Translations under genes and position numbers: made by a program
IMG/VR virus record: IMGVR_UViG_3300029319_009044
Span: 106,909 to 170,908 of that record
Source of the DNA: a virus
Reading direction: 5' to 3' (one strand)
DNA length: 64,000 bases
Notes under the pieces: generated by a model
What the model was told of the DNA's origin: nothing
The model's input: the letters and a program-made list of their open reading frames with translations, nothing else
The model's database searches: none
Shown here: positions 6,428 to 57,314 of the stretch, piece by piece
Layout of the letters: the number at the start of each line of letters is the position of its first letter
Position numbering within the stretch: position 1 is the stretch's first letter

Positions 6428-6444
6428 TAAATATATAAGACGGT

Positions 6445-7617: not shown

Positions 7618-7626
7618 ATATAAATA

Positions 7627-9438: not shown

Positions 9439-9813
9439 TTATCTTATTGGATTAGAGCTAAAGAACTGAGTCCTATAATAAAGAGTACCAGCTCCAGTAC
9501 CAGTTTTAGCTGAAACTTGATTAACGTTAGTTAAACCTCTTAAAGTAATACTGTCATTATCATCAAGTAAAAAACCTCTGCTTACATTTATAGCTTCGGC
9601 ATCACCCCAAGCATCTGATCTATCAAATAAAGTAACTGTTTGACCTGTCTTATTTACTATGTATACTTCTGAGCATAATTGACCTAAAAATGGTTTAACT
9701 GAATCAACACCTGATAAACGAGTCATACCTGTAGTTACACGAATATTAAATGATCTACACTCATTATTATTAAAATATGTACTTCCGTTATTAGTAGTTA
9801 GAGCTTCTGGCAT
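9439..9813 (-). CDS. Hypothetical (probably virion) protein
   Basis: ORF with TAAATA-N5-ATG late-promoter signature. Confidence 0.7.
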   Translation of the reverse strand: MPEALTTNNGSTYFNNNECRSFNIRVTTGMTRLSGVDSVKPFLGQLCSEVYIVNKTGQTVTLFDRSDAWGDAEAINVSRGFLLDDNDSITLRGLTNVNQVSAKTGTGAGTLYYRTQFFSSNPIR

Positions 9814-9843
9814 ATTATTATTTATGCTAGAATAAATAATTTT

Positions 9844-11076: not shown

Positions 11077-11513
11077 TGAACAAGTGGCGACAAGGTATAT
11101 TTATACCTAAAAATTCTCATAAATTTATAGGTGATAAAGCTATTTATAGATCCGGATTAGAATTAAAATTTTTTCGATTCTGTGATAATAATAATAATGT
11201 TAAAAAATGGGGTAGCGAAAATGTAATAGTACCATATTATAACCCTTTAGATAATAAAGGTCATAAGTATTACGTTGATAATTATATTGAAATTTTAGAA
11301 GGTAATAAATTAGTTAAATACTTAGTAGAAATAAAACATTCAAGGGAAACAAAACCACCAAGAACGAAGTATAGAAACCGTAAACATCTAATTTATGAAC
11401 AAAAAACTTTTGTAACTAATCAAGCAAAATGGAAAGCAGCTAAAGAATATAGTAAAAAAAGAGGGTATAAGTTTATTATTTTAACAGAAAAAGAGCTTAT
11501 TTTTAAAAGATGA
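11076..11513 (+). CDS. gp4: Head completion nuclease (T4 gp4, TnsA-like)
   Basis: QG.F.PKN..K, YRSGLE, WGSE..VVPY, YYVD, VEIK, NQAKWKAA, ILTEKEL. Confidence 0.92.
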   Translation: MNKWRQGIFIPKNSHKFIGDKAIYRSGLELKFFRFCDNNNNVKKWGSENVIVPYYNPLDNKGHKYYVDNYIEILEGNKLVKYLVEIKHSRETKPPRTKYRNRKHLIYEQKTFVTNQAKWKAAKEYSKKRGYKFIILTEKELIFKR

Positions 11514-11525
11514 ATAAATAATTGT

Positions 11526-12191
11526 ATGGCTTTAAAACTTAATTTAGTTGTAGAAAAACCTGACATAAACGATGAGTTCGAATATATTGAAGAACAAGCA
11601 GATAGAAATGCTGAATCGAGTCTTTTTATAAAAGGTCCTTATATGATGGCAGAAGGTGTAAATCGTAATAATAGGCTTTACCCTTTAGATGAATTAAAAA
11701 GAGAAACTGAACGTTATATTGAAGAAATGGTTAAACCGGGAAGAGCTATGGGAGAACTTAATCACCCAACTACAGCAGATGTAGATCTAGAAAGAGCATG
11801 TCATATGGTTACTGAATTAACACAAGAAGGTAATATATTCTATGGTAAATCTAAAGTTCTATCAACTCCTTGCGGGCAGGTAGTAAGATCGCTTATAAAT
11901 GATGGAGTAAAAGTAGGTATGTCTTCAAGAGCTTTGGGAACTTTAGAAGAGGGATCAGATCACAGTACAGTTAAAAATATGAAACTGGTTGCTATTGATT
12001 GTGTAGCTGATCCATCTTATCCAAGTGCTTTTGTAGATGGAATTTTAGAATCTAAACAATGGGTTGTCACAGGTGATAATAGATATGAAGAAATATATGA
12101 AGATTTTGAAAAATCTATAAAAACATTACCTAAAAAAGAAGTAGATTCATTTTTACGTAACAGAATTTTAAACTTTATTAAATCTTTATAA
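11526..12191 (+). CDS. gp21: Prohead core protease
   Basis: NRNNRLYP, GELNHP, GMSSRALG, DCVADPS. Confidence 0.95.
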   Translation: MALKLNLVVEKPDINDEFEYIEEQADRNAESSLFIKGPYMMAEGVNRNNRLYPLDELKRETERYIEEMVKPGRAMGELNHPTTADVDLERACHMVTELTQEGNIFYGKSKVLSTPCGQVVRSLINDGVKVGMSSRALGTLEEGSDHSTVKNMKLVAIDCVADPSYPSAFVDGILESKQWVVTGDNRYEEIYEDFEKSIKTLPKKEVDSFLRNRILNFIKSL

Positions 12192-23521: not shown

Positions 23522-26500
23522 TTACATCTTGCGAACCATCGCTTTTACTATGTGAGATTCACCATTACCACTTTCTAATGCTTGTGCGATAATAGTTCCA
23601 TGAATTGTATTTGTAGATCGTTCACCATGTCCAGGTTTATTAGACGTGGTTATATAATCCCCTATCTTAATTTCTCCAGTTACTAACACAGGCTCAGCTC
23701 CTAGAACTATTGGCTGTTTAGCGCCTTTTTGTGTTACACCAAATACATTCTTATCATTTCTCTTAGTAGAAAGTATTAATTTACCATCTTTTCCTATTAC
23801 TACTAAAGAACCGGTTTCATACTCTGCTAATTCATCATTAGCTGCTTTTTCCTCAAAGTATCCTCCAGCTATAACACAATCAAAATAACCATTTCCTGAA
23901 GCACATACATCACCAGTAACACATACACCACCAGTTGTAGTCTGTATTTTTACAGAGTTGTTATAGTAAAGATTTACTGCGCCAGCTCCACCTGCAGTAA
24001 TCATATCTTGTCCATCTTTATCTTCTATCTGTACAGTGTTACCTGATCCTGGTCTTATATATAAACTACCAGCTCCACCTTCAGCAGTTATAAAATTGTG
24101 ACCACCACTATGGTAAATTTGTAAATCGTCATCATCTCCAATTTTCAAATGAGTATTATCAGTCAAACATAAAGCATTTTCGCTTTCATCCCACTTCAAG
24201 AACCTATCAGCTGTTGCTCCAAAAAATTGAACGTCATAACCTGTATCATTAACACCAACAGTTAGGGTACCATCTAATTGTACATTACCATCGATATCAA
24301 CTGCATCAAGATTAGCTGTACCGTTAACGTCTAAATCAGTTCCAACATATAATTTTTTAGCTATTCCTACACCACCTAAAATTTGAACGGCTCCTGTAGA
24401 TGAGCTAGATGCATCAGTTGCAGTACATACACATAGATTTCCAATCTCTACATCTAAGTTTCCAACTGATACATCATTCAAAGTTGCATCACTACCAACA
24501 GTAATATTGTCTAAGAACCCACTTTTCCATCTAACTGAACTCGATCCTAAATCAACATCACTATCTGTTTGCGGTCCAAAGATACCATCAGCAACATAGA
24601 CTTGTTCGGCGTTAGCAGCATAAAAATGTATTTCATCAGCTGTCTCGAAGTCAATCTTAGTTTCGTCATCTTCACCTATCTTAAGATCAGTTGCAAGAAT
24701 AGACGTAATGCCAGTCTGAGCTGCATCAACATTTAAAGTAACTGTTCCTGATGTACCTCCGCCATTTAAACCTGTACCGGCTGTTACACCTTCAATATCA
24801 CCTGTAGTTGGTGTATGCCAACAGATTCCACTACCAGTAGAAGCTAATACTTGACCGCTACTACCTTGGGACCCAGCAATAGTTAAATTATCTAATTCAA
24901 CTGTACCATCAAAGAAAGCATTATTAAATTCTAAAGCATCTGTACCTAAATCTACAATAGCATTTGAACCTGGTGTTAAAAACCCATCAGTTAATATTAA
25001 TTGCTTTTCGTCTCCAGCATAAAAGTTTATTGTATCTGCTGTCTCGAAGTCAATCTTAGTTTCATCATCTTCTCCTATTTTAATATCAGTTGCAAGAATT
25101 GATGTTATGCCTGTTTGAGCTGCAGCTACTGCTAAGTTTCCAGCTGAAGTAACAGCTCCCGTTAACCCAGTACCAGCTCCAACACATGTTACAGTACCAA
25201 GACAATCTGTAGCAGCATTAATTTGAGCAGCTGTTCTTGTAACAAGAGTAGATCCTATGGTTAATTTACTTTCTGGTAGAGTTAGACCAGCGGCACCTCC
25301 AAGTATTAAATCGTCTTCTGAAGCATCCCATAACATATATGCACTAGCCGTATCACCAAAGAACTTAACATCGTAGCCTGTATCATCAACACCAACAGTT
25401 AATGTACCATCTAATTGTACATTACCATCGATATCAACTGCATCAAGATTAGCTGTACCGTTAACGTCTAAAGTAGTTAAAGTACCTAAAGATGTTATAT
25501 TGGTTTGAGCTGCAGTTTGTAGAGTACCTGCTAGTTGTGTTGCTGTTACTCTTCCAGTAGAAGGATTATAATGCAAATGGCCATCCGATTCCAAAGCAAC
25601 ATTACCAGTTGAGCCGGCATCAGCAATGAAAGGTATTAAGTTATCTTCATTAGTATCTTCGTTATCAGCTATATTTAACTTACATGAGTTAGTAGCATTC
25701 TGTGCTGTGGTTACAGTTGTTCCTTGAATAACAGATGCTAAAGTAGCCCCTCCAACTGTTATTGCATCAGCTTCAAGAGTACCGTCGATGTCTGCATCAC
25801 CGGATACGCATAACCCTGCGGCGCCCCCGAGTATTAAGTCATCTGCTGAAGCATCCCATAACATATATGCGCTAGCTGTATCACCAAAGAACTTAACATC
25901 ATAACCTGTATCGTCTACACCAACAGTAACAGTACCATCTATCTGAGTAGTACCATCTATATCAACTGCATCTAAATTAGTAGTACCGTCGATATCAACA
26001 TTACCTGATATCTCTAACTCCGTTGCAATAACCTTATTGTTAAATGTAGCAGCTCCCGCCTCAGACATGTCAAGAGTGAGGGCTGCAATAGCTGAACCAT
26101 TATCAGAACCACAAAATTTAATATCTTTATCATCGATTAAACTTTGTATTAAAAAATTATCACTTCCATCTTTTCTTAATTTACCAAAAGCTGTACCATC
26201 TACTAATAAACAAACATCGTTTCCTGCTGCATCGAGTTTAATATCACCTCCGGAGTCTAATATCATAGTACCACCATCTGATATAGTTGAACTATTAATA
26301 GTAATACCACCAGCAACTATTTTATCAACGTAAGCATCTTTCCATCTAACTAAATTTGTACCTAAATCAACATCGCTATCAGATTGTGGACCAAATATAT
26401 TATCGCCTAGATATACCTGTTCTGTATTATTAGCATAAAAATGTATTTCATCAGCTGTCTCGAAGTCAATCTTAGTTTCATCATCTTCACCTATCTTAAG

Positions 26501-29500
26501 ATCAGTTGCAAGAATTGATGTTATACCTGTTTGAGCTGCATCTACACTTAATGAAGGTGTTGTACCACCCGTTGAAGTTAGTCCTGTACCACCAGCTACA
26601 CTTGTTACTGTACCAAGACAATCTGTAGCAGCATTAATTTGAGCAGCTGTTCTTGTAACAGAAGTGCCCCCTATATGTAAACAGTTTTGAGGAATACATA
26701 ATTTAGCTGCTTCTAAGCATAGATGGTCGTTACCATCATTTGCACACCAACACATATAAACTCCTGAACAAAGACCAAATAATTTTACGTTTTTGCCTTG
26801 AGTATTACAACCAACAGTTAATGTACCATCTAGTTGTACATTACCATCTATATCAACTGCATCTAAATTAGTAGTGCCATCTACATCTACATTACCAGCT
26901 ACGCATAACCCAGCTGCTCCACCAAGTATTAAGTCATCTACTGAAGCATCCCATAACATATATGCGCTAGCTGTATCACCAAAGAATTTTACATCATAAC
27001 CTGTATCGTCTACACCAACAGTTAGAGTACCATCTAGTTGTGAAGCGCCATCAATATCTAAAGAGTCACCTTTAACCTCACCAGTTACATCAATACCAGT
27101 GTTTGTTGTTTCTAACTTCTTAGAGTTGTTAAAATATAAATCAACAGAGTCTCCTTTATTAAGAACAGCCATATTATGGCTATTGTTATATCCTTGAATT
27201 TTTACCTGATCGTTCGCTCTTAAAATAAGATCGCCAGTATCTGTGTCATCAATATAACTATTACTACCATCATGATAAATTTGTAAGTCACCATCATCTC
27301 CTATTTTTAACGGAGTGCTATCAGTTAAACATAATGCATCTTCACTTTCGTCCCACATCATGAAGCTACCAGCTGTTGCTCCAAAGAACTTAACATCATA
27401 TCCCGTGTCATCTACACCAACAGTAACAGTACTATCTATTTGTACAGCACCGTCTATATCAACTGCATCAAGATTAGTAGTACCATTAATATCAGCATCG
27501 CCTTCTATATCAAGCGAAGCAGCATCTAATTCACCAGTTAGAGTTATATTTCTAAAACCTGTTATATCTTTATTTGTATCAACAATAACTGCTTTATTAG
27601 CAGCAACTATGCCATCGGTTATAGAGTTAATTTGATTAAGCTCTGCAGCAGTAGAATCAACTGGAGTACTATTCAGAACTAATTTAGAGTCTCCTATACA
27701 AACTTTATTATTGAAAGTAGCAGTACCAGCATCAGACATATTAAACGTAAGAGCAACTGTTTGTACACCACCATCATTTCCGCAGATAATTAAATTTTGA
27801 TCACTAATTTTACTTTCTACTACAAAATTACTACTATTATTTCTTAATCTTCCAAACTCTGTACCACCGTCTTTTAAACAAATATCACCGCCATTAGCAT
27901 CAAGTACGAGATCTGCTTCAGCGTCTATTATTAGTGTACCACCATCTGATATAGTTGAACTATTAATAGTAATATCACCAGCAACTATTTTATCAACGTA
28001 AGTATCTTTCCATCTAACACCGCTAGTCCCTAAATCTACATCACTATCAGTTCGAGGACCAAAGATACCATCAGCAACATAAACTTGTTCAGCATTAGCA
28101 GCGTAGAAGTGAATCTCATCAGCTGTCTCAAAATCAATCTTAGTTTCGTCATCTTCTCCAATTTTAATATCAGTAGCTAGTAAAGATGTAATAACTGTTT
28201 GAGCAGCATCTACATTTAAAGTAACAGCTCCTGATGTACCGCCACCATTTAAACCCGTACCTGCTGTTACACCTGTAATATCACCTGTAGTTGGAGTATG
28301 CCAACAGATTCCGCTACCAGTAGAAGCTAATACTTGACCGTTAGCACCTTGAGAACCACAAATTTTTATATTATCTAATTTAACTGTACCATCAAAGAAA
28401 GCATTATTAAACTCTAAAGCATCTGTTCCTAAATCTACTGCAGCATTCGAACCCGGTGTTAAAAACCCATCAGTTAATATTAATTGCTTTTCATTATCGG
28501 TATAAAAGTTTATGGTATTTGTATCTTCAAAATCAATCTTAGTTTCATCATCTTCTCCTATTTTAATATCAGTAGCTAAAATAGAAGTAATACCTGTTTG
28601 AGCAGCAGCTACGGCTAAGTTTCCAGCTGAAGTAACGGCTCCTGTTAATCCAGTACCAGCTCCAACACATGTTACAGTACCTAAGCAATCTGTTGCAGCA
28701 TTAATTTCTCCGCCTGTTTTTGTAACAAGAGTAGATCCTATGGTTAATTTACTTTCTGGTAGAGTTAGACCAGCGGCACCTCCAAGTACTAAATCATCAG
28801 TAGATGCATCCCATAACATATATGCGCTAGCAGTATCACCAAAGAACTTAACGTCGTATCCTGTATCATCAACGCCAACTGTAACTGTATTGTCTATTTG
28901 TACAGCACCGTCTATATCAACAGCATCGAGATTAGCTGTACCATCTACATCAAGATCAGTTCCAACATATAATTTTTTAGCTATTCCTACACCACCTAAA
29001 ATTTGAACGGCTCCTGTAGATGAACTTGATGCATCAGTTGCAGTGCAAACACATAGATTTCCAATCTCTACATCTAAGTTTCCAACTGATACATCATTCA
29101 AAGTTGCATCACTACCAACAGTAATATTGTCTAAGAATCCACTTTTCCATCTAACTCCAGTTGTACCTAAATCTACATCACTATCTGTTTGAGGACCAAA
29201 AACACCATCAGAAACATGAACTTGTTCTGTATTGTTTATATTAAAAAATAAACATTGACCGGATTTTGCGTTTAAGCCAGTTGCTCCACTTGCATTCTGT
29301 TTAACAGCATAATTTGTTGAAGTACCATTATCAAAATGAGAAAAATAGGCATTGTCACCTACATAATTACCAATTCTTGACTGACCTATAACAGCATTTG
29401 TTGGGTTATCAGCATTTACACATAAATTATTTCCTGAATAAAGAACACCGCTAGCACTTATATTACCAACAACTGAGATTTTTTCACCGGGGGTGAATGT

Positions 29501-30304
29501 GCCTACTCCAAGCTTACCATCATCTGCAAAAATTATATCTCCTCCATTTTTATCTATAAAATGAGCAATAGGTTGTGTACCGTCTTGACGAACAAATAAT
29601 GCAGGACCGGTACCTGTATTAACTACAGATAGAGCTGATGTAACACTAACGTTAGTATCAATATAATGCATGTCTCCATGCACGCTTAGATTACCTAATA
29701 TTGTACTATCACCGTCAATATTTAAATTACATCTAGCACTTAAATTACCATTTACTTCAATAGTAGTACCGAGTTCACTTATGAGACTATCGCCTATACA
29801 AGATGAAGCGGTAAACTTAGGTATTTTATTTATAGTACCAGCTCCACCTACTCCACCTGCCGCTCCACCTGCGCCAAATATGTCTAAAAGATCTGTACCA
29901 CCAGAAATAAAAGAAGAAGCAGCAAAAATTGAATTAGCACTTAAGTTACTTCCCGCACTTATAAATCCTGTAACCGTTAAATTACCTTCAATATCATTTA
30001 CACTACCACCACTTCCAGTATTTTCTACAAATTTAACTCCACCTTGCCCATCAGCTGCTAATATTAACCCTTCAGATATATTAGTAGTTTTTAAATCAAT
30101 ACTTTCTACTACTACTTGATCACTACTTAATGGCTCACCTCTCCATTTACCTAGATAACTTCCAGAAGATATACCTGTACCAAATATAGTATTAGAAGAA
30201 CTAATACCTCCTGCTACAGTAAGTTGTTGCTCGGGTTTAGTCCCTATTCCTATTTTACCAAGGAATACGTTATTTTGACCTTCAAATGTTCTAATGAGCC
30301 CCAT
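23522..30304 (-). CDS. Giant repeat-rich tail fibre protein (2260 aa), paralogous to 16649-23500
   Basis: Shares KIGEDD.TKIDFETADEIHFYA, TGYDVKFFGDTASAYMLWDAS, GGVGIAKKLYVG modules; C-terminal G.I.IGD.ITTS..PG domain. Confidence 0.8.
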   Translation of the reverse strand: MGLIRTFEGQNNVFLGKIGIGTKPEQQLTVAGGISSSNTIFGTGISSGSYLGKWRGEPLSSDQVVVESIDLKTTNISEGLILAADGQGGVKFVENTGSGGSVNDIEGNLTVTGFISAGSNLSANSIFAASSFISGGTDLLDIFGAGGAAGGVGGAGTINKIPKFTASSCIGDSLISELGTTIEVNGNLSARCNLNIDGDSTILGNLSVHGDMHYIDTNVSVTSALSVVNTGTGPALFVRQDGTQPIAHFIDKNGGDIIFADDGKLGVGTFTPGEKISVVGNISASGVLYSGNNLCVNADNPTNAVIGQSRIGNYVGDNAYFSHFDNGTSTNYAVKQNASGATGLNAKSGQCLFFNINNTEQVHVSDGVFGPQTDSDVDLGTTGVRWKSGFLDNITVGSDATLNDVSVGNLDVEIGNLCVCTATDASSSSTGAVQILGGVGIAKKLYVGTDLDVDGTANLDAVDIDGAVQIDNTVTVGVDDTGYDVKFFGDTASAYMLWDASTDDLVLGGAAGLTLPESKLTIGSTLVTKTGGEINAATDCLGTVTCVGAGTGLTGAVTSAGNLAVAAAQTGITSILATDIKIGEDDETKIDFEDTNTINFYTDNEKQLILTDGFLTPGSNAAVDLGTDALEFNNAFFDGTVKLDNIKICGSQGANGQVLASTGSGICWHTPTTGDITGVTAGTGLNGGGTSGAVTLNVDAAQTVITSLLATDIKIGEDDETKIDFETADEIHFYAANAEQVYVADGIFGPRTDSDVDLGTSGVRWKDTYVDKIVAGDITINSSTISDGGTLIIDAEADLVLDANGGDICLKDGGTEFGRLRNNSSNFVVESKISDQNLIICGNDGGVQTVALTFNMSDAGTATFNNKVCIGDSKLVLNSTPVDSTAAELNQINSITDGIVAANKAVIVDTNKDITGFRNITLTGELDAASLDIEGDADINGTTNLDAVDIDGAVQIDSTVTVGVDDTGYDVKFFGATAGSFMMWDESEDALCLTDSTPLKIGDDGDLQIYHDGSNSYIDDTDTGDLILRANDQVKIQGYNNSHNMAVLNKGDSVDLYFNNSKKLETTNTGIDVTGEVKGDSLDIDGASQLDGTLTVGVDDTGYDVKFFGDTASAYMLWDASVDDLILGGAAGLCVAGNVDVDGTTNLDAVDIDGNVQLDGTLTVGCNTQGKNVKLFGLCSGVYMCWCANDGNDHLCLEAAKLCIPQNCLHIGGTSVTRTAAQINAATDCLGTVTSVAGGTGLTSTGGTTPSLSVDAAQTGITSILATDLKIGEDDETKIDFETADEIHFYANNTEQVYLGDNIFGPQSDSDVDLGTNLVRWKDAYVDKIVAGGITINSSTISDGGTMILDSGGDIKLDAAGNDVCLLVDGTAFGKLRKDGSDNFLIQSLIDDKDIKFCGSDNGSAIAALTLDMSEAGAATFNNKVIATELEISGNVDIDGTTNLDAVDIDGTTQIDGTVTVGVDDTGYDVKFFGDTASAYMLWDASADDLILGGAAGLCVSGDADIDGTLEADAITVGGATLASVIQGTTVTTAQNATNSCKLNIADNEDTNEDNLIPFIADAGSTGNVALESDGHLHYNPSTGRVTATQLAGTLQTAAQTNITSLGTLTTLDVNGTANLDAVDIDGNVQLDGTLTVGVDDTGYDVKFFGDTASAYMLWDASEDDLILGGAAGLTLPESKLTIGSTLVTRTAAQINAATDCLGTVTCVGAGTGLTGAVTSAGNLAVAAAQTGITSILATDIKIGEDDETKIDFETADTINFYAGDEKQLILTDGFLTPGSNAIVDLGTDALEFNNAFFDGTVELDNLTIAGSQGSSGQVLASTGSGICWHTPTTGDIEGVTAGTGLNGGGTSGTVTLNVDAAQTGITSILATDLKIGEDDETKIDFETADEIHFYAANAEQVYVADGIFGPQTDSDVDLGSSSVRWKSGFLDNITVGSDATLNDVSVGNLDVEIGNLCVCTATDASSSSTGAVQILGGVGIAKKLYVGTDLDVNGTANLDAVDIDGNVQLDGTLTVGVNDTGYDVQFFGATADRFLKWDESENALCLTDNTHLKIGDDDDLQIYHSGGHNFITAEGGAGSLYIRPGSGNTVQIEDKDGQDMITAGGAGAVNLYYNNSVKIQTTTGGVCVTGDVCASGNGYFDCVIAGGYFEEKAANDELAEYETGSLVVIGKDGKLILSTKRNDKNVFGVTQKGAKQPIVLGAEPVLVTGEIKIGDYITTSNKPGHGERSTNTIHGTIIAQALESGNGESHIVKAMVRKM
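24335..29156. repeat. ~200-bp direct repeat (24335-24536 and 28955-29156) and a longer ~600-700 bp diverged duplication (~24750-25400 vs ~28230-28880) in fibre gene 2
   Basis: Compared by eye; related copies also near 18105-18300 and 20855-20940 in fibre gene 1. Confidence 0.8.
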
Positions 30305-31877: not shown

Positions 31878-32434
31878 ACCTTATTATATAAACGTTCCTT
31901 TAGAAAACTACCCCAAGTTGCAAGAGAAGTTGATCTTAAAGCACTATACATTTCATCTAATGTTAATATATTAGCTGTAGAAACTTCAGAGTATGTATCA
32001 ATTTCACCTGCATCTACTTCTTCTACTACCTTATGCACAACACTACCTACCATATCATACTTATGAATATCTGCCCACGCTCTTTGCTGCGGGTCTTTTC
32101 CTTTAAGTTCAGGGTATTTAGTTATAAGACCTGGATGACCGTTATAGATGTTATACTTAGCGCATTTATCTGGAGGCACTATTCGAAGCCAACCATTTAA
32201 AGTTATCAATGTATCATCTGCAGATTCTACAACCTCGTCTAAGATATCTAAGGTTTTAGCCTCTTTACCAAAAGTAGTTAACCATCGATATTCTACGCCT
32301 TTCAGAATATTAAAAATATTACTTGGATGGTTATTCGAAATAATAAGATCAGGTACTCTATTTATTTGATTTGATATATCTATTATTTCTTGACCTGTTT
32401 GAGAAAATAATGCAATCCAATTATTATACTTCAT
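31874..32434 (-). CDS. PurN-like formyltransferase (candidate DpdN preQ1 formyltransferase)
   Basis: ALFSQTG, TLNGWLRIVP, YNGHPGL...P..KG, GSVVHKV...VDAGEI; co-transcribed with queF. Confidence 0.8.
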   Translation of the reverse strand: MKYNNWIALFSQTGQEIIDISNQINRVPDLIISNNHPSNIFNILKGVEYRWLTTFGKEAKTLDILDEVVESADDTLITLNGWLRIVPPDKCAKYNIYNGHPGLITKYPELKGKDPQQRAWADIHKYDMVGSVVHKVVEEVDAGEIDTYSEVSTANILTLDEMYSALRSTSLATWGSFLKERLYNKV

Positions 32435-32814
32435 TATAAATATTCTAATGCCAAATAATTAATTAGCAAGTGTATGGTATTATCACAAGCTACTAATAAC
32501 CAAAGTGAAAGCCATTGTGGTACTTCTTTATGGTAACCTGTTTCTTTACAATCTTCCCACTTATGCCAATATTTTTTAGGGCTAAGGCGACTTTTAGCAA
32601 ACACTACATAACGCGCTAATCTAAATCTATCAATTAAAAAATGAGTAATACAAATTACCGCAAAAGCTTCTAAAGAAGGGCATAATATCAAGAAAGGTAA
32701 AGAGTATGTGATCGCATGCGCTGCAGCTGCTTTACTACACTTCGTTTTATTAAGTGCCATCCAATCGCTCTGAAGAAGATAGTCACCAATTAGATGGAGT
32801 ATTAACTGGAGCAT
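32434..32814 (-). CDS. DUF3307-family membrane protein
   Basis: HLIGDY.LQS.WMA..K, H...Y, THFLID, DNTIH. Confidence 0.75.
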   Translation of the reverse strand: MLQLILHLIGDYLLQSDWMALNKTKCSKAAAAHAITYSLPFLILCPSLEAFAVICITHFLIDRFRLARYVVFAKSRLSPKKYWHKWEDCKETGYHKEVPQWLSLWLLVACDNTIHLLINYLALEYL

Positions 32815-32851: not shown

Positions 32852-32871
32852 GGTGTATATTAAATAATTTT

Positions 32872-33153
32872 GTGGAAGAGTTTTTTAAGCTAGTAACAGA
32901 AGTAGGATTTCCAATAGCAGGTGCTGTTGTATGTGGAGGTTTTGTATTTATTATTTTAAAATTTATATTGAGTGAGATAACTAGCTCAGTAAAAGGATTA
33001 GGGAGTATGATTAAATCATTAGAAAATAGAGTTCAAACTATGAATAACGATATAGTAAAAATTGATACTTTAGTTTCTTATGCTTTTAATAAACAACCTA
33101 ATTTAGATAGACTAGCAGCTAACGAAGGGAAGGAGGATGCAAGAAAAGACTAA
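32872..33153 (+). CDS. Small membrane protein (TM + coiled coil), first gene of the curli-like cassette
   Basis: GFPIAG TM segment; TAAATA-N5-GTG. Confidence 0.7.
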   Translation: MEEFFKLVTEVGFPIAGAVVCGGFVFIILKFILSEITSSVKGLGSMIKSLENRVQTMNNDIVKIDTLVSYAFNKQPNLDRLAANEGKEDARKD

Positions 33154-33452
33154 TGACTGATACTATTGTAAAAATAATAAATGATTTTGGTTTTCCCATT
33201 TTTGCAGCTTTTGGGTTAGGATATTTTGTTTACTATACTTGGAATTGGGTAGTAAAAGAAATAAAGCCTGTATTAGATGAATCTACAGGAACTTTGATAG
33301 GGCTTATCGATAGAATAAGAATGTTAGATAATGATATGATTAGACTTAACACTAAGATTCAAATGATACTACAGGAAAAAGATAGAATTAAAGAATTAGA
33401 AAAAAAAGAAAATCGAAGAAAAAATACACATATTTTAGATACTAAGCTCTAG
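33153..33452 (+). CDS. Small membrane protein, paralog of the upstream gene
   Basis: GFPIFAA...LIDRIRMLDNDMIRLNT aligns with GFPIAGA...LENRVQTMNNDIVKIDT. Confidence 0.7.
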   Translation: MTDTIVKIINDFGFPIFAAFGLGYFVYYTWNWVVKEIKPVLDESTGTLIGLIDRIRMLDNDMIRLNTKIQMILQEKDRIKELEKKENRRKNTHILDTKL

Positions 33453-33482
33453 CCATATATATTAATAGAGGTAAATAGAGTT

Positions 33483-33947
33483 ATGAAGTGTTTATGTTTC
33501 TTAATACTTTTATGTAGCAGTAGTCTAGCTAATGAATTAACATTTAGGTTTAAATCTCCTTCATTTAGTGGTATTGGATACAGTGCGCATAAAATAAATC
33601 TAGAAAATATATCTGCGGCCAGAAAGAAAACAATTAGAGATGAATTAAAATCATTAGAAATTCAAGCTAATTTAGCTGCCCAGAGAACTCCATTGAATGT
33701 ATTTATGACAAATTTACAGTCAAGGATTTATTCAGAGCTCTCTAAACAGGTTACAGAGCAGCTATTTGCTGATACTGGTTCTGATTCAGGTTCTTTTAAT
33801 CTTGATGGTAATACTATATCATGGTATAGATTAGCTGACCAAATAAATCTGACAGTAACTGATACTGATGGTGATCTTACTAACATATTAATTCCTATTG
33901 GATCACTTCTATTACCTGAGCCAACTAATGAAACAACTACTGAATAG
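33483..33947 (+). CDS. csgF: Curli assembly protein CsgF
   Basis: Sec signal then ELTFRFKSPSFSG (cf. CsgF mature N-terminus), F.TNLQSRIYSELS, GSF.L.G. Confidence 0.85.
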   Translation: MKCLCFLILLCSSSLANELTFRFKSPSFSGIGYSAHKINLENISAARKKTIRDELKSLEIQANLAAQRTPLNVFMTNLQSRIYSELSKQVTEQLFADTGSDSGSFNLDGNTISWYRLADQINLTVTDTDGDLTNILIPIGSLLLPEPTNETTTE

Positions 33948-34812
33948 TCTTTTAAGTTTAACACTTTTAAGCGGTTGCGCAACTTTTAATGATAGTGAAC
34001 TTAATAAACCTCCTATCGTAGCTCCAACCCCTTTAAAAAATAAATTAACTACTATACCAGAATTAGATGGTGAGCCTATTTATATTGGAGTTAATAGCTT
34101 TAAAGACTTAACTGGAGCAAGAAAACAAGCTGATAATTATGCAAGTTTCTCTTCTGCAGTTACTCAAGGTGGTGAAGCATGGTTAATTGAATCTCTCTTA
34201 GAGTCAAATGGTTGGTTTAAAGTTTTAGAAAGAGGTCAATTAGATACAGTAATGAGAGAAAGAGCTTTAGTTCAACAAACTAGAGAAGACTTTACTGATG
34301 ATGATGAAACTGGATTAAAACCTTTATTATTTGCTGGATTGCTTATACATGGAGGAATTATAAGTTATGATACTAATATGATTTCTGGTGGTGTGGGAGC
34401 TGCCTACTTAGGTATAGGTGCTCATGAACAGTACAGGAAAGATGTAGTTACTGTATCATTAAGATTAGTGAGTACGTTAACTAGTGAGATTCTTTTATCT
34501 TCAACTGTATCAAAAACTATATACTCAACCTCACTAGGATCAGATGTATTTAAATTTGTTAACCAAGCTTTAGATTCACTTGAATTTGAAATAGGATATG
34601 CTAAAAATGAGCTAGTATCGGTAGCTACTAGAGCAGCTATAGATTTAGCTATTTTAGATTTAATTGAAAAAGGAGAAAAAAATAAAATGTGGAAATTTAA
34701 AAAGAGCACTGTAAAAAAATTACCTAAAATAACTGAAAAAGAACAAGTTAAAAAAGAACCATTAAGTAAAAATAAGAAATATAAGTCTTCGTTTAATAAA
34801 ATAAAAAGATAG
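33928..34812 (+). CDS. csgG: Curli secretion channel lipoprotein CsgG
   Basis: Lipobox LSGC; FKDLTGARK, FSSAVTQG, WFKVLER, GGIISYDTN..SGG.GA.YLGIG...YRKDVVTVSLRLVS. Confidence 0.93.
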   Translation: MKQLLNSLLSLTLLSGCATFNDSELNKPPIVAPTPLKNKLTTIPELDGEPIYIGVNSFKDLTGARKQADNYASFSSAVTQGGEAWLIESLLESNGWFKVLERGQLDTVMRERALVQQTREDFTDDDETGLKPLLFAGLLIHGGIISYDTNMISGGVGAAYLGIGAHEQYRKDVVTVSLRLVSTLTSEILLSSTVSKTIYSTSLGSDVFKFVNQALDSLEFEIGYAKNELVSVATRAAIDLAILDLIEKGEKNKMWKFKKSTVKKLPKITEKEQVKKEPLSKNKKYKSSFNKIKR

Positions 34813-34831
34813 ATTTTTAATAAATAATTTT

Positions 34832-35662
34832 ATGAACATAAAATCTATTTTAACAGCTATTCTTTTATCTAGTGGTTTAGTATTCTCTTCAAATGAAATT
34901 TACTTAGATCAGATAGGTAGTGCAGGTATATTTAATATATCTCAAATTGGATCTAGTAACAAATTAGGAGAAGGTAATAATCGATCTAGAATTGAAGGAG
35001 AAGAAGTTATTTTTAATGTAGCAACTATAGGTAATGAAAATTTAATAGATATTGACTCTATAGGAAATGAAGAAGTAGTAAATCTTCAAGTAGAAGGCGA
35101 TGCTAATGACTTTATTTTAGCTCTTGAAGGTGATCAAAATACTGTAAATGCTTTTGTAGCAGGAGATACTAACAGCATTTTAATTGCAGGAGACCAGGAA
35201 GATACACAAAAAGCTACTGTAAATAATGGATTAATAAATTTAAATGTTGAGGGTGCTTCAAATGATATAGAGTTATTACTATTTGATACATCATATACTT
35301 TTACAGATTATTTTATTGGTGGCTCTTTAAATACCATTAGCTCTTATCAAGAAGGTCATGGTGGTTTAATTGGACATTCACAACTAGTTGATGTTTTTGG
35401 TAGTAGTAATAATTTATTAATATCTCAAGTAGGTTCTGAAAGTCAATTTATTGAGCTCTCAGTTTTAGGAAATGAAAACACATATCAAATATATCAAACA
35501 GATGGAAGCTTTGATCCATCATTCATGCCTGAGCAAATTGGTAACGAGGTTAACCCAGTTAACGATTTTTCAAATCCCGATGGTATTCCAAAAGTTCCAA
35601 CACTTGTTATCGAGCCACGTCCATTATTACTCGAAGGTATTGTTCTCGAACAGGGTCAGTAA
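34832..35662 (+). CDS. Secreted curlin-like beta-solenoid repeat protein (CsgA/CsgB-like)
   Basis: Signal peptide; NEIYLDQIG, ISQIGSSN, QVEGDAN, LEGDQN, VAGDTN, VEGASN repeats; follows csgG. Confidence 0.7.
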   Translation: MNIKSILTAILLSSGLVFSSNEIYLDQIGSAGIFNISQIGSSNKLGEGNNRSRIEGEEVIFNVATIGNENLIDIDSIGNEEVVNLQVEGDANDFILALEGDQNTVNAFVAGDTNSILIAGDQEDTQKATVNNGLINLNVEGASNDIELLLFDTSYTFTDYFIGGSLNTISSYQEGHGGLIGHSQLVDVFGSSNNLLISQVGSESQFIELSVLGNENTYQIYQTDGSFDPSFMPEQIGNEVNPVNDFSNPDGIPKVPTLVIEPRPLLLEGIVLEQGQ

Positions 35663-36563
35663 TATAGTTCTTATAATAAGTTTTATCTTATTACCTATAC
35701 TTGCTTACGCTGACATAGGCAGTGTAACGTCTCAAACTAAAGCAGCTAGAATTACCCGTAAAGGGGATAAATTTCTTACTGAAGTTAATACTTTAGTTGA
35801 AATGAGAGATTTAATTGAAACCTTAAAAGGTAAGGCTAATATAAAATTTATAGATGATACTAAAGTAAGTGTCACGGAATATTCTAAACTTGTAATAGAT
35901 GAATTTGTTTATAACCCAGAAAAGAAAACAGGTAAACTATCGTTAAAAGCAGCATTAGGTACTATAAGATATTCTTCAGGTAAAATTGCTAAGAATTCTC
36001 GACAAAATGTAAAGATAAAATCTCCAACTGCTTCAGTTACTGTTAGAGGTACTGATTTTACTATGAATGTTCAAGAAGATGGAGCTAGTAGTTTTCTATT
36101 ATTACCATCAAAGGATGATGCTGGTAACTCATTTGTTGGATCTATAGATGTTTCAACTCTTGGAGGTACTGTTACTTTAAATAAAGCGTATCAAGCAACT
36201 ACTGTTACTTCAGCTATAGCAGCACCAACACCACCGCAAGTTATACAACAAGATGGTCCTCAAGTAAAGAAAGATAAAAATAAAAAAGAAAATATAGAAG
36301 AAGATACAAAACCAGAAGATGATGAAAAACAACAAGATTTTGAAGATATTAAAATAAAGAGAAAAGAAAAGAAAGCCAAAAATGCTTTTTTAAAAATGGA
36401 TGATGGGAGATATGTTTTCTTTTCTAAAGATAAAGATAATATTATTTCTCTTATAGTAGAAGATGGTAGCAACGTTACAGTAAATTATGATAATAGAGGC
36501 AGTATTATTAACGCTAAGATGAACTCAGGTAATAACGTACAATTTAACATAAAACAACAATGA
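35580..36563 (+). CDS. FecR-domain exported protein; start uncertain (ATG 35580 or TTG 35640)
   Basis: Signal ending AYA-DIG; D.IET, I.F.DDT.V...EYS.L.IDEFVY.P, GTIRY.SG.IAK, IKSPTA.V.VRGTDF. Confidence 0.85.
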   Translation: MVFQKFQHLLSSHVHYYSKVLFSNRVSNIVLIISFILLPILAYADIGSVTSQTKAARITRKGDKFLTEVNTLVEMRDLIETLKGKANIKFIDDTKVSVTEYSKLVIDEFVYNPEKKTGKLSLKAALGTIRYSSGKIAKNSRQNVKIKSPTASVTVRGTDFTMNVQEDGASSFLLLPSKDDAGNSFVGSIDVSTLGGTVTLNKAYQATTVTSAIAAPTPPQVIQQDGPQVKKDKNKKENIEEDTKPEDDEKQQDFEDIKIKRKEKKAKNAFLKMDDGRYVFFSKDKDNIISLIVEDGSNVTVNYDNRGSIINAKMNSGNNVQFNIKQQ

Positions 36564-38617
36564 AATTTTTTAATATAAATGCTTATGCAATATGCTTAGC
36601 AGTTACTGTAGTTATGGTTCTATTAAGAATATTTGATCCTTTTTTTATAGAAACTGCTCGACTTAAAGGTATAGACTATTATCAAAATAAACAAGAAAAA
36701 GTTATATCAGAAAATATAGCTATTATTGAAATTGATGAGAATAGTTTAGATGAATATGGTCAGTGGCCTTGGAATAGAAGTTTGATTGCTGGGGGTATAG
36801 CAAAAGCTTTTGAAAGTGGAGCTCAATTAGTAGTGGTACCTATTTTATTTGCAGAAAAGGATAGACTTGGAGGTGATAAAGACTTAGTAAATTTATTAAG
36901 CGAAGCACCAGTTATTATAGGCCAATCAGCAAGTACAAAAGGTAAAGGATCTCCAGTTCCAAGAGGATTAGCTACTATTGGTGAACCGTTAGGAGACTGG
37001 CTTTATGATTACCCTGAAGCTATAGGACCTGTAAAAGAGTTAGGAGAAGTTGCTGCTGGAGTAGGTATGATACTAACAGCTCCAGAATTAGATGGAGTAG
37101 TTAGAAGAATGCCTTTAGTTATTCAAATAAAAGGTGAAGCATACCCTACTATACCTTTAGAAGTTATAAGATTATTTTCAGGTGAGCAATCTTATCAGGC
37201 TAAAGTTGGTTTAGGCGGTGTTGAAGCTATAAGAGTTCCAGGATTTGATCCTATAGCTACTGACGAAAACTCTAGAGTTTGGCTCAATTTTAAATATAAT
37301 TTTAATAAAGTATCTTTTAATGAAACTGATTGGTCAGTAGTTAAAGATAAAATTGCTGTTATAGGGTTAACAGGGGAAGGTTTAGCTAATACAGTAGCTA
37401 CTTCAACAGGTATAAGCTATGGACATGAAATTACTAGCCAAGCTTTACAAATGCTAATTGATGAATCTAGATTACAAAGACCTACTGAATCCACTATATT
37501 AGAAGTAATTATTACAGCATCATTCTGCTCGCTTCTTATCATTGGAGCTCTCTGGTTATCCTATAAGTTTAGCTTAGTATTAATAATAGCTTCTTTAGCT
37601 GCTGGACCATTTATCGGAAATATCTTTTATAATAATAATGGTTGGTTAATAGATTATACTTGGCCTTTTGCATGTATATTTGTTACCTGGGCTTGTGCAA
37701 CATTCATAAGATTTATTAATGAAAGCAAATCTAAACAACAGATAAAGAAACAATTTGAACATTATCTTGCTCCTCCCATAGTTAAATTATTGCAAAAGGA
37801 TCCTACATTACTAAAGCTTGGAGGCGATACTAGAGAGTTATCTATATTGTTTAGCGATTTAAGAGGGTTTACTTCTATAAGCGAACATTTTAAAAGCAAC
37901 CCTCAAGGTTTAACGGAATTAATAAACAGATACCTTACTCCGATGACAGGGTGTGTTATAGATCACAATGGTACAGTAGATAAATTTATTGGTGATGCTT
38001 TAATGGCCTTTTGGAATGCACCGTTAGATGTAAAAGACCATAGAGAAAAATCTATATACTGCGGTATAAAAATGTTTGATTTACTAGCTAAACTTAATAA
38101 GGAAGTAATTAACGAAGGTTTAGATGAATTAAAAATAGGGGTAGGTATTAATACTGGTGATGTAGTAGTAGGTAATATGGGATCAGAACAACGGTTTGAC
38201 TATACATGTTTAGGCGATGCAGTAAATTTATCTTCTAGATTAGAAGGTCAGACAAAAGATTATAGAGTAGGTATCATAGTGGGTGAAGGAACAGTAAAAG
38301 GAATAGAAGATAGATTTAAATTTGTAGAATTAGATAAAATAGCAGTCAAAGGAAAAGAAGAAGGGGTAAGAATTTACACCATTTTAAATAATACATCTAG
38401 ATGTGCTAATGGAGGCGATGTAACTCATCATAATACATTCTTAACATTCTATAGAAAACAACACTGGAATAGAGCATTAAAAATGATTGATTTAAATCAA
38501 ATTACATACCCGGAGTTAAAAGGTTATTATGAAATGATGAGAGAGAGAATAGAAACTCTCAAAGTTAATAAGCCTGGAAAAGGTTGGGATACAATTTATA
38601 GAGCTACTTCGAAATAA
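36560..38617 (+). CDS. CHASE2-domain membrane adenylate/guanylate cyclase (class III)
   Basis: IDENSL..YGQWPW.R, DGVVRRMPL (CHASE2); TM helices; LFSDLRGFT, DKFIGDALMAFWNAP, GINTG.VVVGNMGS..RFDYT.LGDAVNLSSRLEG. Confidence 0.95.
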   Translation: MKFFNINAYAICLAVTVVMVLLRIFDPFFIETARLKGIDYYQNKQEKVISENIAIIEIDENSLDEYGQWPWNRSLIAGGIAKAFESGAQLVVVPILFAEKDRLGGDKDLVNLLSEAPVIIGQSASTKGKGSPVPRGLATIGEPLGDWLYDYPEAIGPVKELGEVAAGVGMILTAPELDGVVRRMPLVIQIKGEAYPTIPLEVIRLFSGEQSYQAKVGLGGVEAIRVPGFDPIATDENSRVWLNFKYNFNKVSFNETDWSVVKDKIAVIGLTGEGLANTVATSTGISYGHEITSQALQMLIDESRLQRPTESTILEVIITASFCSLLIIGALWLSYKFSLVLIIASLAAGPFIGNIFYNNNGWLIDYTWPFACIFVTWACATFIRFINESKSKQQIKKQFEHYLAPPIVKLLQKDPTLLKLGGDTRELSILFSDLRGFTSISEHFKSNPQGLTELINRYLTPMTGCVIDHNGTVDKFIGDALMAFWNAPLDVKDHREKSIYCGIKMFDLLAKLNKEVINEGLDELKIGVGINTGDVVVGNMGSEQRFDYTCLGDAVNLSSRLEGQTKDYRVGIIVGEGTVKGIEDRFKFVELDKIAVKGKEEGVRIYTILNNTSRCANGGDVTHHNTFLTFYRKQHWNRALKMIDLNQITYPELKGYYEMMRERIETLKVNKPGKGWDTIYRATSK

Positions 38618-47719: not shown

Positions 47720-48460
47720 TTATTTATTCAAAGCTGCTTCTAAGGCACTTCTTAATTTAGCTTCTGCTTTAGAACCTATATCATCTTTTCTTCCGGGGGA
47801 TATTTCTCTGTGTGTGGTAACAGTAGATAAATCTTTAGGCCATCCCCATTTTTCAAATCTCGGCACTAACCACTCTACAGCAGATGCAACTTCGTCATCA
47901 GTAAGCTCTCTAGTATTAGTATTACCACTGAAAGCTAATCCAAGTAAAAACCCATTACAATTAGTTCTTCCATTGAAATTAGATTTACCTGCATGCCAAC
48001 ATCTACGATCATCATCTGCAAAAATTGTTCTTTCTCCATTAGTATCTATAATGCAGTGATACGATACTTGAGACTTCGTTTGACATATCCAACTTACTGA
48101 TCCAGCATAAGATCCTGAAGAATGATGTAATACCACACCTTCAGGTCTAATTCTAGATGAAGATATATTAGGTGAAGGTTTACTTACTTCTGGGTATGTT
48201 CCGTCGACGGCACTTGATGCGACCTCAACCACTGCGGGTTGTTTACTTAAGCCTAACGCTTCTGAAATAGTTTTTGCTGTGTTAGGTCCATAAGCACCAT
48301 CTGGAAGGGAATCTGTTTTTTTCTGAATAATTTTAGTAAGTTCTTCTTTAGTAAATCCTAGCTTACTTATAATTTTTAACGCAGTATTCTTACCATAAAT
48401 ACCATCAGCTGTAGCGCCTACAGCTTCTTGAATCTTTTTAGTAGTTTCTTTTAATGACAT
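47720..48460 (-). CDS. Endolysin: N-terminal PG-binding repeats + Amidase_2
   Basis: ADGIYGKNT / PDGAYGPNT repeats; VVLHHS, SYH..I, WHAG, THREISPGRK.D. Confidence 0.9.
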   Translation of the reverse strand: MSLKETTKKIQEAVGATADGIYGKNTALKIISKLGFTKEELTKIIQKKTDSLPDGAYGPNTAKTISEALGLSKQPAVVEVASSAVDGTYPEVSKPSPNISSSRIRPEGVVLHHSSGSYAGSVSWICQTKSQVSYHCIIDTNGERTIFADDDRRCWHAGKSNFNGRTNCNGFLLGLAFSGNTNTRELTDDEVASAVEWLVPRFEKWGWPKDLSTVTTHREISPGRKDDIGSKAEAKLRSALEAALNK

Positions 48461-56175: not shown

Positions 56176-56505
56176 ATGAGGCCAGTAATTTTTTATGAAG
56201 GTATAGTTGCGCCTCCTTCAGAATCTGGAGCTGTTCGCTCTGTATGTTTGTATGGTAAGGTTTTTATAGATTCTAACCTTCCCTTTTTATTAGAAACTAC
56301 CCAAGAAAATAAAGATATATATTATGATTGGATAAAGAAAGTTGGATTAACAGATTTTATAAAAGAGATAGTAACTGCTGAAGAAAAAGTAAAAGGTTTA
56401 AGAATATCTGAAGATAAAAAAAGAGATCCTTGTCTTACTATATCAAGAGTATCATTAGATAATTTAGATCATATTGTAAATATGTTAAAATATTCTAATT
56501 TTTAA
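56176..56505 (+). CDS. Hypothetical protein
   Basis: TAAATA-N5-ATG. Confidence 0.6.
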   Translation: MRPVIFYEGIVAPPSESGAVRSVCLYGKVFIDSNLPFLLETTQENKDIYYDWIKKVGLTDFIKEIVTAEEKVKGLRISEDKKRDPCLTISRVSLDNLDHIVNMLKYSNF

Positions 56506-57314
56506 TTATTTTTATTTGCTAATATACTAGCGTTTCTTTCCATACGCTTTACTACTCCATCTCTACCTTTACTCTTACGTCTTTTATACTCTTTATGATC
56601 AAGGTATTCATTAGCAGCTTTTATGTTTTCCCCTCTTTGTAAAAGCTTTACCCATTGCATACCAGGTAGAAGGTCACCTCTATAGCTAATATCAAGTAAA
56701 ACTGCTGCTTGTTCATCATTAAGGTCATTGAAAGATAAACCAAAAATTTCTTTTACTCGATTTAAATGAAAGTTTAACTTTTTATCAAAAAGCTTTTCAG
56801 CGAATTCTGGAGATATAGAACTACCATATTTTTTAACCCATTTATTCTTAGCTGCTAATGATCCATCTCCAATTTTATTTCCTATACCTATAGTATAAAC
56901 ACCGACATCATCTCTATATGGTTTTAAGAATTTTTTATTTCTAGGTTCACTAATATCAGTACCATATATTTCTACCGGTTTAATTAAATTACCTGCTAGA
57001 GTTAAAACACTATCTTCGTCTTTATCAGGCGGTAAATCATCTACAGTAGATTTTTTCTCTTTAGGCTCCGGAGGTAAGTAACTATTTTTATCTCTTGTTT
57101 CATATTGCTTTAAGTATTCATCTGCAGCTCTATGAAAGTTAGATGATGAAGGCATTATATCTTCAACTCTATCTATAGCGTTAATTTTTTGCTCTATAGG
57201 TTCTGGTCGCTTATCTAAGTAATCTTGTATTTTTTCTGCCGAAAAAGGAGCGGAACCTATAGCTAATAAGCCAAGTACTATTTCTTTCATACCTTCGTCA
57301 AACTGTTGAGTCAC
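56502..57314 (-). CDS. Lysozyme-fold (GH24-like) protein, possibly virion-associated
   Basis: KPYRDDVGVYTIGIG, QAAVLLDISYRG, AANEYLD...RMERNA; start moved to GTG 57314 (TAAATA-N5) because the longer ORF overlaps the tmRNA. Confidence 0.7.
   Translation of the reverse strand: MTQQFDEGMKEIVLGLLAIGSAPFSAEKIQDYLDKRPEPIEQKINAIDRVEDIMPSSSNFHRAADEYLKQYETRDKNSYLPPEPKEKKSTVDDLPPDKDEDSVLTLAGNLIKPVEIYGTDISEPRNKKFLKPYRDDVGVYTIGIGNKIGDGSLAAKNKWVKKYGSSISPEFAEKLFDKKLNFHLNRVKEIFGLSFNDLNDEQAAVLLDISYRGDLLPGMQWVKLLQRGENIKAANEYLDHKEYKRRKSKGRDGVVKRMERNASILANKNN

Follow-up and report, generated by a model that had tools for sequence, protein, structure and literature searches.

Gene Content of the Locus

A 64 kb stretch of viral DNA (hereafter the window), corresponding to the last 64 kb of the 170.9 kb IMG/VR record IMGVR_UViG_3300029319_009044 (81% complete), was analysed for a block of genes related to the curli, or type VIII, secretion system (T8SS). 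The source of the record is a T4-like marine myophage with a GC content of about 31%. The block consists of seven tightly packed, co-oriented genes (32872–38617, + strand), flanked on both sides by groups of genes on the minus strand, and brings together the CsgF/CsgG secretion channel, a curlin-like repeat protein, a FecR-domain protein and a cyclase with a CHASE2 sensor domain. As reported below, comparison with phage and bacterial genomes indicates that two modules lying apart in Alphaproteobacteria are joined here into a single viral unit. The genes of the block are as follows.

32872–33153, + strand: small membrane protein 1 (93 aa), with a hydrophobic segment at residues 7–40; phrog_18771 (7e-27)
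33153–33452, + strand: small membrane protein 2 (99 aa), paralogue of protein 1; phrog_18771 (7e-31)
33483–33947, + strand: CsgF homologue (154 aa); Pfam CsgF over the full model (5e-18), phrog_35372
33928–34812, + strand: CsgG outer-membrane lipoprotein (294 aa); Pfam CsgG (5e-50), lipobox LLSGC
34832–35662, + strand: curlin-like beta-solenoid repeat protein (276 aa), assigned by homology, AlphaFold2 (AF2) fold and VIA match
35640–36563, + strand: FecR-domain protein, predicted periplasmic (307 aa); Pfam FecR (3e-9), AF2 model, Foldseek
36560–38617, + strand: CHASE2, transmembrane and class IIIb adenylate cyclase protein (685 aa); Pfam CHASE2 (1e-35) and Guanylate_cyc (7e-21)

All seven plus-strand open reading frames (ORFs) listed in an earlier reading of the window, made from the letters alone (the sequence-only reading), are present, and the identities it had proposed were confirmed by hidden Markov model (HMM) matches for CsgF, CsgG, FecR, CHASE2 and Guanylate_cyc. 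Every gene of the cassette also has its own PHROG match, with the two leading paralogues falling into one PHROG.

Secretion Channel and Repeat Protein

The CsgF homologue carries a signal peptide, and the N-terminus of its predicted mature form reads NELTFRFKSPSFSG; a phmmer comparison with solved CsgF gave no match, the sequences being too diverged. For CsgG, the most likely start is the ATG at 33928, which yields a signal peptide ending in the lipobox. The protein aligns over its full length with Escherichia coli CsgG (3x2r/6l7a, E = 2e-40); in the constriction loop the Phe is conserved, while N55 and Y51 of the E. coli protein are replaced by Ser and Ala, respectively. No CsgE was detected by PF10627 across the 171-kb record, which extends to the entire record the earlier remark that none was visible in the window. 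Since alphaproteobacterial curli regions have been reported without CsgE (Wittmers et al. 2022, PMC9599517), its absence is compatible with a curli system of the alphaproteobacterial type.

The repeat protein is made of a signal peptide, about 19 strands and a disordered C-terminal tail starting at residue 233, and its invariant columns are G-x-x-N pairs recurring with an 11-residue period. Its description as curlin-like draws on homology, fold and repeat period, the protein aligning end to end with gp101 of the cultured phage Melnitz (E = 3e-13), which is itself above the Curlin_rpt threshold, and with the 'CsgB' of the cultured phage HTVC008M (E = 2e-7). On the contrary, the Curlin_rpt model found no match in the window protein even at E ≤ 10, nor elsewhere in the phage record. 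The proposed beta-solenoid fold gained support from the AF2 model, an all-beta solenoid spanning residues 21–225 with a pLDDT of about 90, and from an exhaustive VIA search, whose top match was the curli subunit CsgA of Pontibacter (8c50; Z 17.7, 196 residues aligned, 23% identity, root-mean-square deviation 8.9 Å). CsgA was tied on Z with the beta-helix of SufD, many generic beta-helices ranking below, and Foldseek returned no significant match for the model.

FecR-Domain Protein and CHASE2 Cyclase

The most likely start of the FecR-domain protein is the conserved TTG at 35640, which leads to a signal peptide cleaved between LAYA and D. An ORF beginning at 35472 overlaps the repeat-protein gene by 190 nt at the 3' end of the latter (35472–35662), but the added stretch lacks a signal peptide and its translation is improbable; the upstream start was thus rejected as an artefact of ORF extension. 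Downstream of the signal peptide, the protein comprises a FecR/PupR-type domain modelled with confidence by AF2 (residues 25–200), a charged and disordered linker (205–255) and a small, conserved C-terminal beta module of low confidence (AF2 confidence below 50 in the tail). In Foldseek, the domain matched the periplasmic signalling domains of anti-sigma factors, namely 4m0h and 6ovk (the PupR–PupB complex), with probability 1.00 over about 148 residues at 3–4 Å.

In FecR/PupR systems, the binding partner of this domain is an outer-membrane protein, contacted through its periplasmic signalling domain. The phage protein shares the periplasmic fold but differs from the anti-sigma factors in having neither a cytoplasmic anti-sigma domain nor a transmembrane anchor, its signal peptide being of the cleavable type and the FecR domain starting at residue 25; moreover, its partner is a cyclase and not an extracytoplasmic function (ECF) sigma factor.

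The tails of 38 diverged FecR proteins end in a short conserved strand, with I and Q present in at least 90% of them. That this tail might be a curlin repeat was considered, but found no support: BLAST against the second curlin proteins encoded in some related phages and against the window repeat protein gave E = 0.11, E = 0.33 and no match, hhalign of the 38 tails against the repeat-protein profile gave a probability of 0.4%, and a per-member Pfam scan found Curlin_rpt in 0/38.

In the last protein of the block, Pfam CHASE2 covers residues 16–327 and is flanked by hydrophobic segments at 2–33 and 310–357. Alignment with 3r5g, 2w01 and 6fht showed the catalytic residues of the cyclase domain to be intact, including the metal-binding D433 and D479 and the transition-state residues N556 and R560. 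The substrate-specifying pair K475/T549 corresponds to the Lys/Thr of the Pseudomonas aeruginosa cyclase CyaB (3r5g), whereas the guanylate cyclase Cya2 (2w01) has Glu/Gly in these positions. Catalytic and specificity residues are invariant, or nearly so, across 40 homologues, and the closest solved relatives of the domain are adenylate cyclases. By its sequence, the protein is a class IIIb adenylate cyclase with a predicted periplasmic CHASE2 domain between membrane segments. The product, earlier given as cAMP or cGMP on the basis of the class III catalytic motifs, can thus be narrowed to cAMP as predicted from a specificity pair that is Lys/Thr and not Glu/Gly. No domain binding cyclic nucleotides was found in the phage genome; therefore, the target of the predicted cAMP must be a host protein.

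With regard to the two genes that open the block, small membrane protein 1 has an N-terminal transmembrane helix followed by a helical tail, and the start of small membrane protein 2 overlaps the stop codon of the previous gene (TAATG). The published label 'histidine kinase' finds no support for these proteins, which are 93–99 aa long with one membrane helix: searches for kinase domains (HisKA/DHp, HATPase_c) gave no kinase-family Pfam match at E ≤ 0.1, and the only matches were to PHROGs of unknown function. The nearest atlas cluster of small membrane protein 2 is named 'Holin family protein', an automatic label with no family behind it, which we retain as a lead only.

Late-Promoter-Like Elements

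Three elements resembling phage late promoters were located in the cassette.

32859–32871, + strand: ATTAAATA plus 5 nt, abutting the GTG of the first gene (small membrane protein 1)
33470–33482, + strand: GGTAAATA plus 5 nt, abutting the csgF ATG
34819–34831, + strand: AATAAATA plus 5 nt, abutting the ATG of the repeat-protein gene; one of 30 ATAAATA-N5-start sites in the genome

The sequence-only reading had taken these sites as late-promoter cores wiring the cassette into the phage programme. This claim was at first dismissed, as no perfect TATAAATA is present at any of the three sites and the genome-wide frequency of TAAATA alone equals chance. Analysis of the spacing overturned the dismissal. 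All three sites share the exact geometry TAAATA-N5-start codon, and in the 171-kb record the TAAATA core is found 5 nt before a start in 44 cases and 6 nt before in 18, with 0–4 cases at other spacings, whereas control hexamers in the same geometry gave 1–4 cases. Similarly, 30 out of 97 ATAAATA sites lie exactly 5 nt before the start codon of an ORF of at least 50 aa, with 9 at 6 nt and 0–3 at each other spacing. The late-type wiring of the cassette is therefore supported, because all three flagged sites show the over-represented geometry. Genes preceded by it include those for the head-tail adaptor and the prohead protease as well as endolysin-like genes, and element sites occur in the window, for example, at 9832, 11514, 14906, 34820, 46871, 48472/48502, 52644, 57326, 58217, 61240 and 63202.

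Alignment with related phages placed NATAAATA exactly at −13 from the start codon, before the repeat-protein gene in four diverged phages, before the first gene in two phages and before csgF in HTVC008M. In particular, the related loci L003 and L012 carry the canonical AATAAATA where the window has ATTAAATA before the first gene, HTVC008M has TATAAATA at the csgF offset matching the GGTAAATA of the window, and the promoter offset of the repeat-protein gene is conserved in L003, L006 and L012. The late box of T4 spans −13 to −6. Combining this spacing with the geometry of the elements, the first transcribed base may be the A of the start codon, which would give leaderless late mRNAs in this phage group. 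As for the T4-type late factors, tblastn with the gp33-like protein (late co-activator) of Melnitz gave no match in the record, and gp55 (late sigma) was not located in the part of the Melnitz annotation examined, nor confirmed in this record.

Occurrence of the Gene Block in Other Phages

A search of the viral contig collection gave at least 596 stretches with a viral CsgG relative. Eighty loci were chosen by similarity to the query, a selection biased to the myophage type, and the 37 with enough flanking sequence were counted. CsgF, CsgG, the repeat protein, FecR and the cyclase were present, all five and in fixed order, in 37/37 loci, and the same order was observed in 12/12 closer loci, a set to which a 236-kb phage-like contig with another backbone belongs. 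The co-conservation of FecR and cyclase with csgFG, on which the sequence-only reading had been made to depend, thus extends to every viral locus counted. A second curlin-like gene lies between FecR and the cyclase in 19/37 loci and is missing from the other 18, the window included; since this gene is inserted in about half of the loci, the two parts of the block are interleaved and not merely adjacent. The small membrane pair was found in 27/37 loci.

Three of the loci examined (L009–L011, on contigs of 25–236 kb; locus positions 5841–12058) carry the five-gene core on a different, larger phage-like backbone with GP88, RNA ligase and ART-PolyVal genes. In these, the small membrane pair is replaced by two genes of about 123 aa each, one of which has a cREC_REC match.

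Among close relatives, L004, L005 and L007 match the window at 96–99% identity over the CsgF–FecR part but at only 83% in the cyclase, while L003 shows 93% identity in the cyclase and 76–91% in the rest. Such a shift in identity points to recombination at the FecR/cyclase junction.

The presence of csgFG in pelagimyophages was reported by Zaragoza-Solas et al. (2020). The implication of the sequence-only reading that phage reports had stopped at csgFG proved to be incorrect: the full cluster, with FecR and cyclase, is annotated in the Pelagibacter phage HTVC008M (KC465899) and in the Methylophilales phage Melnitz (MZ577097), and Wittmers et al. (2022, PMC9599517) gave a description of it together with ocean-wide counts and evidence of its transcription. 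These authors listed 'HK', CsgF, CsgG, CsgA/B, FecR, a second CsgA/B and an adenylate cyclase (AC) in pelagiphages of both the podo- and the myo-type, and inferred that the genes came from Alphaproteobacteria and had passed from one phage family to another. The genes turned up at each of the 65 GOV2.0 stations, and transcripts were detected in Pacific metatranscriptomes. HTVC008M and Melnitz have the gene set and order of the window (two small proteins, CsgF, CsgG, curlin-like protein, FecR and adenylate cyclase), and the setting agrees as well: in a T4-like marine myophage, the cluster separates the replication module from the structural one. Protein identity between the window and these cultured phages is only 35–60%, however, and both HTVC008M and four Melnitz isolates carry the extra curlin-repeat gene between FecR and cyclase that the window does not have. 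The cluster is, hence, a further member of the already described pelagiphage T8SS/curli region. CHASE2 is not named in Zaragoza-Solas 2020, Buchholz 2022 or Wittmers 2022.

Bacterial Counterparts of the Two Modules

Bacterial relatives of the cyclase were retrieved from genome contigs with an alignment query, a single-sequence scan having found none. The nearest cellular homologues are alphaproteobacterial and align over the full length with 31–36% identity. A FecR gene was found within 10 kb of the CHASE2 cyclase in 33/83 alphaproteobacterial loci (40%), against about 1.6% expected from the background of about 0.8 FecR genes per Mb (14 in 17.5 Mb). FecR was directly adjacent in 18/83 loci and, in 14 of these 18, upstream and co-oriented as in the phage; in one genome of 1.4 Mb, the sole FecR gene is that near the cyclase. 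The invariant motifs RGT and VY[DN]P are common to the phage and bacterial FecR partners. Clusters of FecR with CHASE2 have been published for Burkholderia (LysM-FecR with a CHASE2 kinase), S. meliloti (smc02177/cyaD1) and Campylobacterota (a CHASE2 cyclase cluster). Judged by these gene neighbourhoods, FecR and the CHASE2 cyclase are a pre-existing bacterial sensor pair, and this is the new point of the present analysis. The bacterial pairs resemble that of the phage in having the FecR gene immediately upstream of, and co-oriented with, a CHASE2 transmembrane sensor; they differ from it in showing no linkage with csgFG and in FecR partners that are often 1,200–2,400 aa long or carry LysM.

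Many of these long partners have FecR near the N-terminus, followed by cadherin-like/Ig arrays and then by C-terminal RTX repeats. In the five giants that were scanned, an N-terminal FecR and cadherin-like/Big_9 arrays were found, with weak C-terminal RTX-type matches in 3/5. This architecture of FecR, cadherin/Ig and RTX is the one known from surface adhesins secreted by the type 1 route, which keep their N-terminus inside the periplasm, and it does not seem to have been discussed previously as a sensor partner. The phage shows the same adhesin logic in pieces, with the FecR domain and linker in one protein and the surface repeat proteins encoded on either side. Giant proteins of 1,200–2,400 aa lie directly beside CHASE2 adenylate cyclases at L049, L052, L054, L058, L064, L073 and L093 (Bradyrhizobium and other Alphaproteobacteria).

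On the side of the channel, 401 alphaproteobacterial genomes were sampled, and CsgG at 39–43% identity was found in 7/401, with csgF immediately upstream in 7/7. A Curlin_rpt gene adjoins csgFG in both of the bacterial loci examined for it (n = 2). These alphaproteobacterial curli operons thus share with the phage the order csgF, csgG, curlin-like gene, but in none of the seven (0/7) does a FecR gene or a CHASE2 cyclase lie within 10 kb, and the phage subunit is much more diverged. Reciprocally, none of the alphaproteobacterial CHASE2-cyclase loci (0/83) contained a gene for CsgG, CsgF, the repeat protein or the small pair. On these comparisons, two bacterial modules meet in the phage block, a junction seen only in phages among the genomes sampled.

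Proposed Coupling and Competing Explanations

The periplasmic FecR domain and the cyclase's CHASE2 domain likely work together, as suggested by the recurrent pairing of their genes. For the block as a whole, we consider it somewhat better than an even chance that it forms one late-transcribed viral curli/T8SS unit, assembled from two alphaproteobacterial modules, in which the cAMP output of FecR–CHASE2 is tied to the secretion and fibre apparatus. The first module (csgF, csgG and the curlin-like gene) would install the CsgG/CsgF channel in the host outer membrane, and the channel would export the Sec-delivered beta-solenoid subunit to the cell surface. The second module (the FecR-domain protein and the CHASE2 adenylate cyclase) would be a two-gene envelope sensor, with the soluble periplasmic FecR domain acting as co-sensor or ligand of the periplasmic CHASE2 domain, and the state of FecR–CHASE2 would tune the class IIIb cyclase in the cytoplasm and thereby the production of cAMP, which would act on host targets. 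The apparatus might be read through the occupancy of its pore, the load of subunits in the periplasm, or contact of the fibre or surface. A late cAMP output would be tied to the newly made apparatus because the two modules are fused into one phage unit.

That FecR may sense what state the CsgG/CsgF pore or the exported solenoid is in finds indirect support in the second curlin-like gene interleaved between FecR and cyclase and in the adhesin-type character of the bacterial partners. Physical contact between FecR and CHASE2, any contact of FecR with CsgG or the fibre, the direction of regulation, the downstream target of cAMP and the benefit to the phage are all inferences.

A number of observations weigh against such a coupling. 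Since the modules were never neighbours in bacteria, with no FecR or cyclase near csgFG and no curli gene near the CHASE2 cyclases, the coupling is not an inherited property. The recombination at the FecR/cyclase junction and the podophage versions, often without a cyclase (PMC9599517), fit a looser association. The missing Curlin_rpt match of the repeat protein has to be set on the same side, and a direct link between fibre and FecR through a curlin-like tail is unsupported by BLAST, hhalign and Pfam alike. In addition, clumping was not seen in Melnitz-infected cultures (Buchholz et al. 2022), and literature searches found nothing on a cAMP receptor in Pelagibacter and no later experimental work on the proteins of the cluster.

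An alternative is that of two independent cargo modules travelling together, the curli trio serving aggregation ('sibling capture') or superinfection exclusion, and FecR with CHASE2 sensing some other envelope or environmental cue and reprogramming the host through cAMP, with no signal passing between the two. This explanation, to which we give a minor but real share of credence, is favoured by the separation of the modules in bacteria (0/83, 0/7), by the mosaic break at the FecR/cyclase junction, by the podophages that are sometimes without cyclase (PMC9599517) and by aggregation hypotheses already in the literature. It fits poorly with co-occurrence in fixed order in 37/37 viral loci, with the interleaved second curlin-like gene in about half of them, with the movement of the whole block between phage families (PMC9599517) and into an unrelated 236-kb phage-like contig, and with Melnitz being without clumping.

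A more specific form of coupling, which we regard as unlikely, would make FecR a tether across the outer membrane. The folded FecR domain would sit at CHASE2 in the periplasm, the charged linker of about 50 residues would pass through CsgG and the conserved C-terminal strand module would dock onto the curlin-like fibre outside, so that contact, load or loss of the fibre would be turned into cAMP; the bacterial giants beside CHASE2 cyclases would act likewise.

A lysis-timing device is improbable. In it, CsgG/CsgF would form a gated pore, secretin- or pinholin-like, the small proteins would be holin/antiholin-like and cAMP or FecR would set the timing; a gated pore for lysis timing was proposed for Melnitz (Buchholz et al. 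2022), the late-type promoters are common to endolysin genes, and the atlas neighbour of one small protein carries the automatic name 'Holin family protein'. Yet CsgG is a lipoprotein of the outer membrane and no inner-membrane holin, a dedicated solenoid substrate, predicted to be Sec-exported, is encoded in every viral locus counted, separate endolysin-type genes lie at 47720–48460 and 56502–57314, the small proteins are missing from 10/37 loci and from L009–L011, and no family stands behind the holin label.

Finally, a role in iron or cofactor uptake and regulation, with FecR acting as in ferric-citrate signalling and the CsgG channel importing siderophores or vitamins (an option raised in PMC9599517), is very improbable despite the Pfam name FecR and the open-channel argument drawn from the missing CsgE, because the phage FecR has only a signal peptide before its domain and thus no anti-sigma part or membrane anchor, because the conserved bacterial partner is a CHASE2 sensor and not FecI/FecA, and as bacterial partners are often giant cadherin/RTX adhesin-like proteins.

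FecR and the cyclase of the block are a conserved bacterial FecR–CHASE2 sensor pair and not iron or curli regulators borrowed ad hoc, and this is the conceptual gain. We know of no CHASE2 domain with a known ligand. In the phage, this pair stands beside a single pore and a single fibre protein and nothing more, an unusually simple, very abundant and compact setting in which to find what FecR–CHASE2 senses; if the tether were true, FecR–CHASE2 would be a general sensor of 'surface-appendage state', and the first ligand class for CHASE2 would be in hand. Published counts put phage curli proteins at about 0.1% of the viral proteins assembled from the oceans, and the hosts, SAR11 and OM43, are without curli genes of their own. 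By giving a streamlined planktonic cell surface fibres together with a cAMP-producing envelope sensor, such a phage could alter aggregation, the timing of lysis or superinfection among the sea's most abundant bacteria.

Neighbouring Genes

Just upstream of the cassette, a 126-aa ORF is present on the minus strand (32434–32814); in the relative L012 (6129–6527), the same place is taken by a divergently oriented gene of similar size for a DUF3307-type membrane protein. Further upstream, and also on the minus strand, the window encodes a fibre-like protein of 2,260 aa (23522–30304) made of several internally repeated modules, in which DTGYDVKFFG and IGEDDETKIDFE occur many times each.

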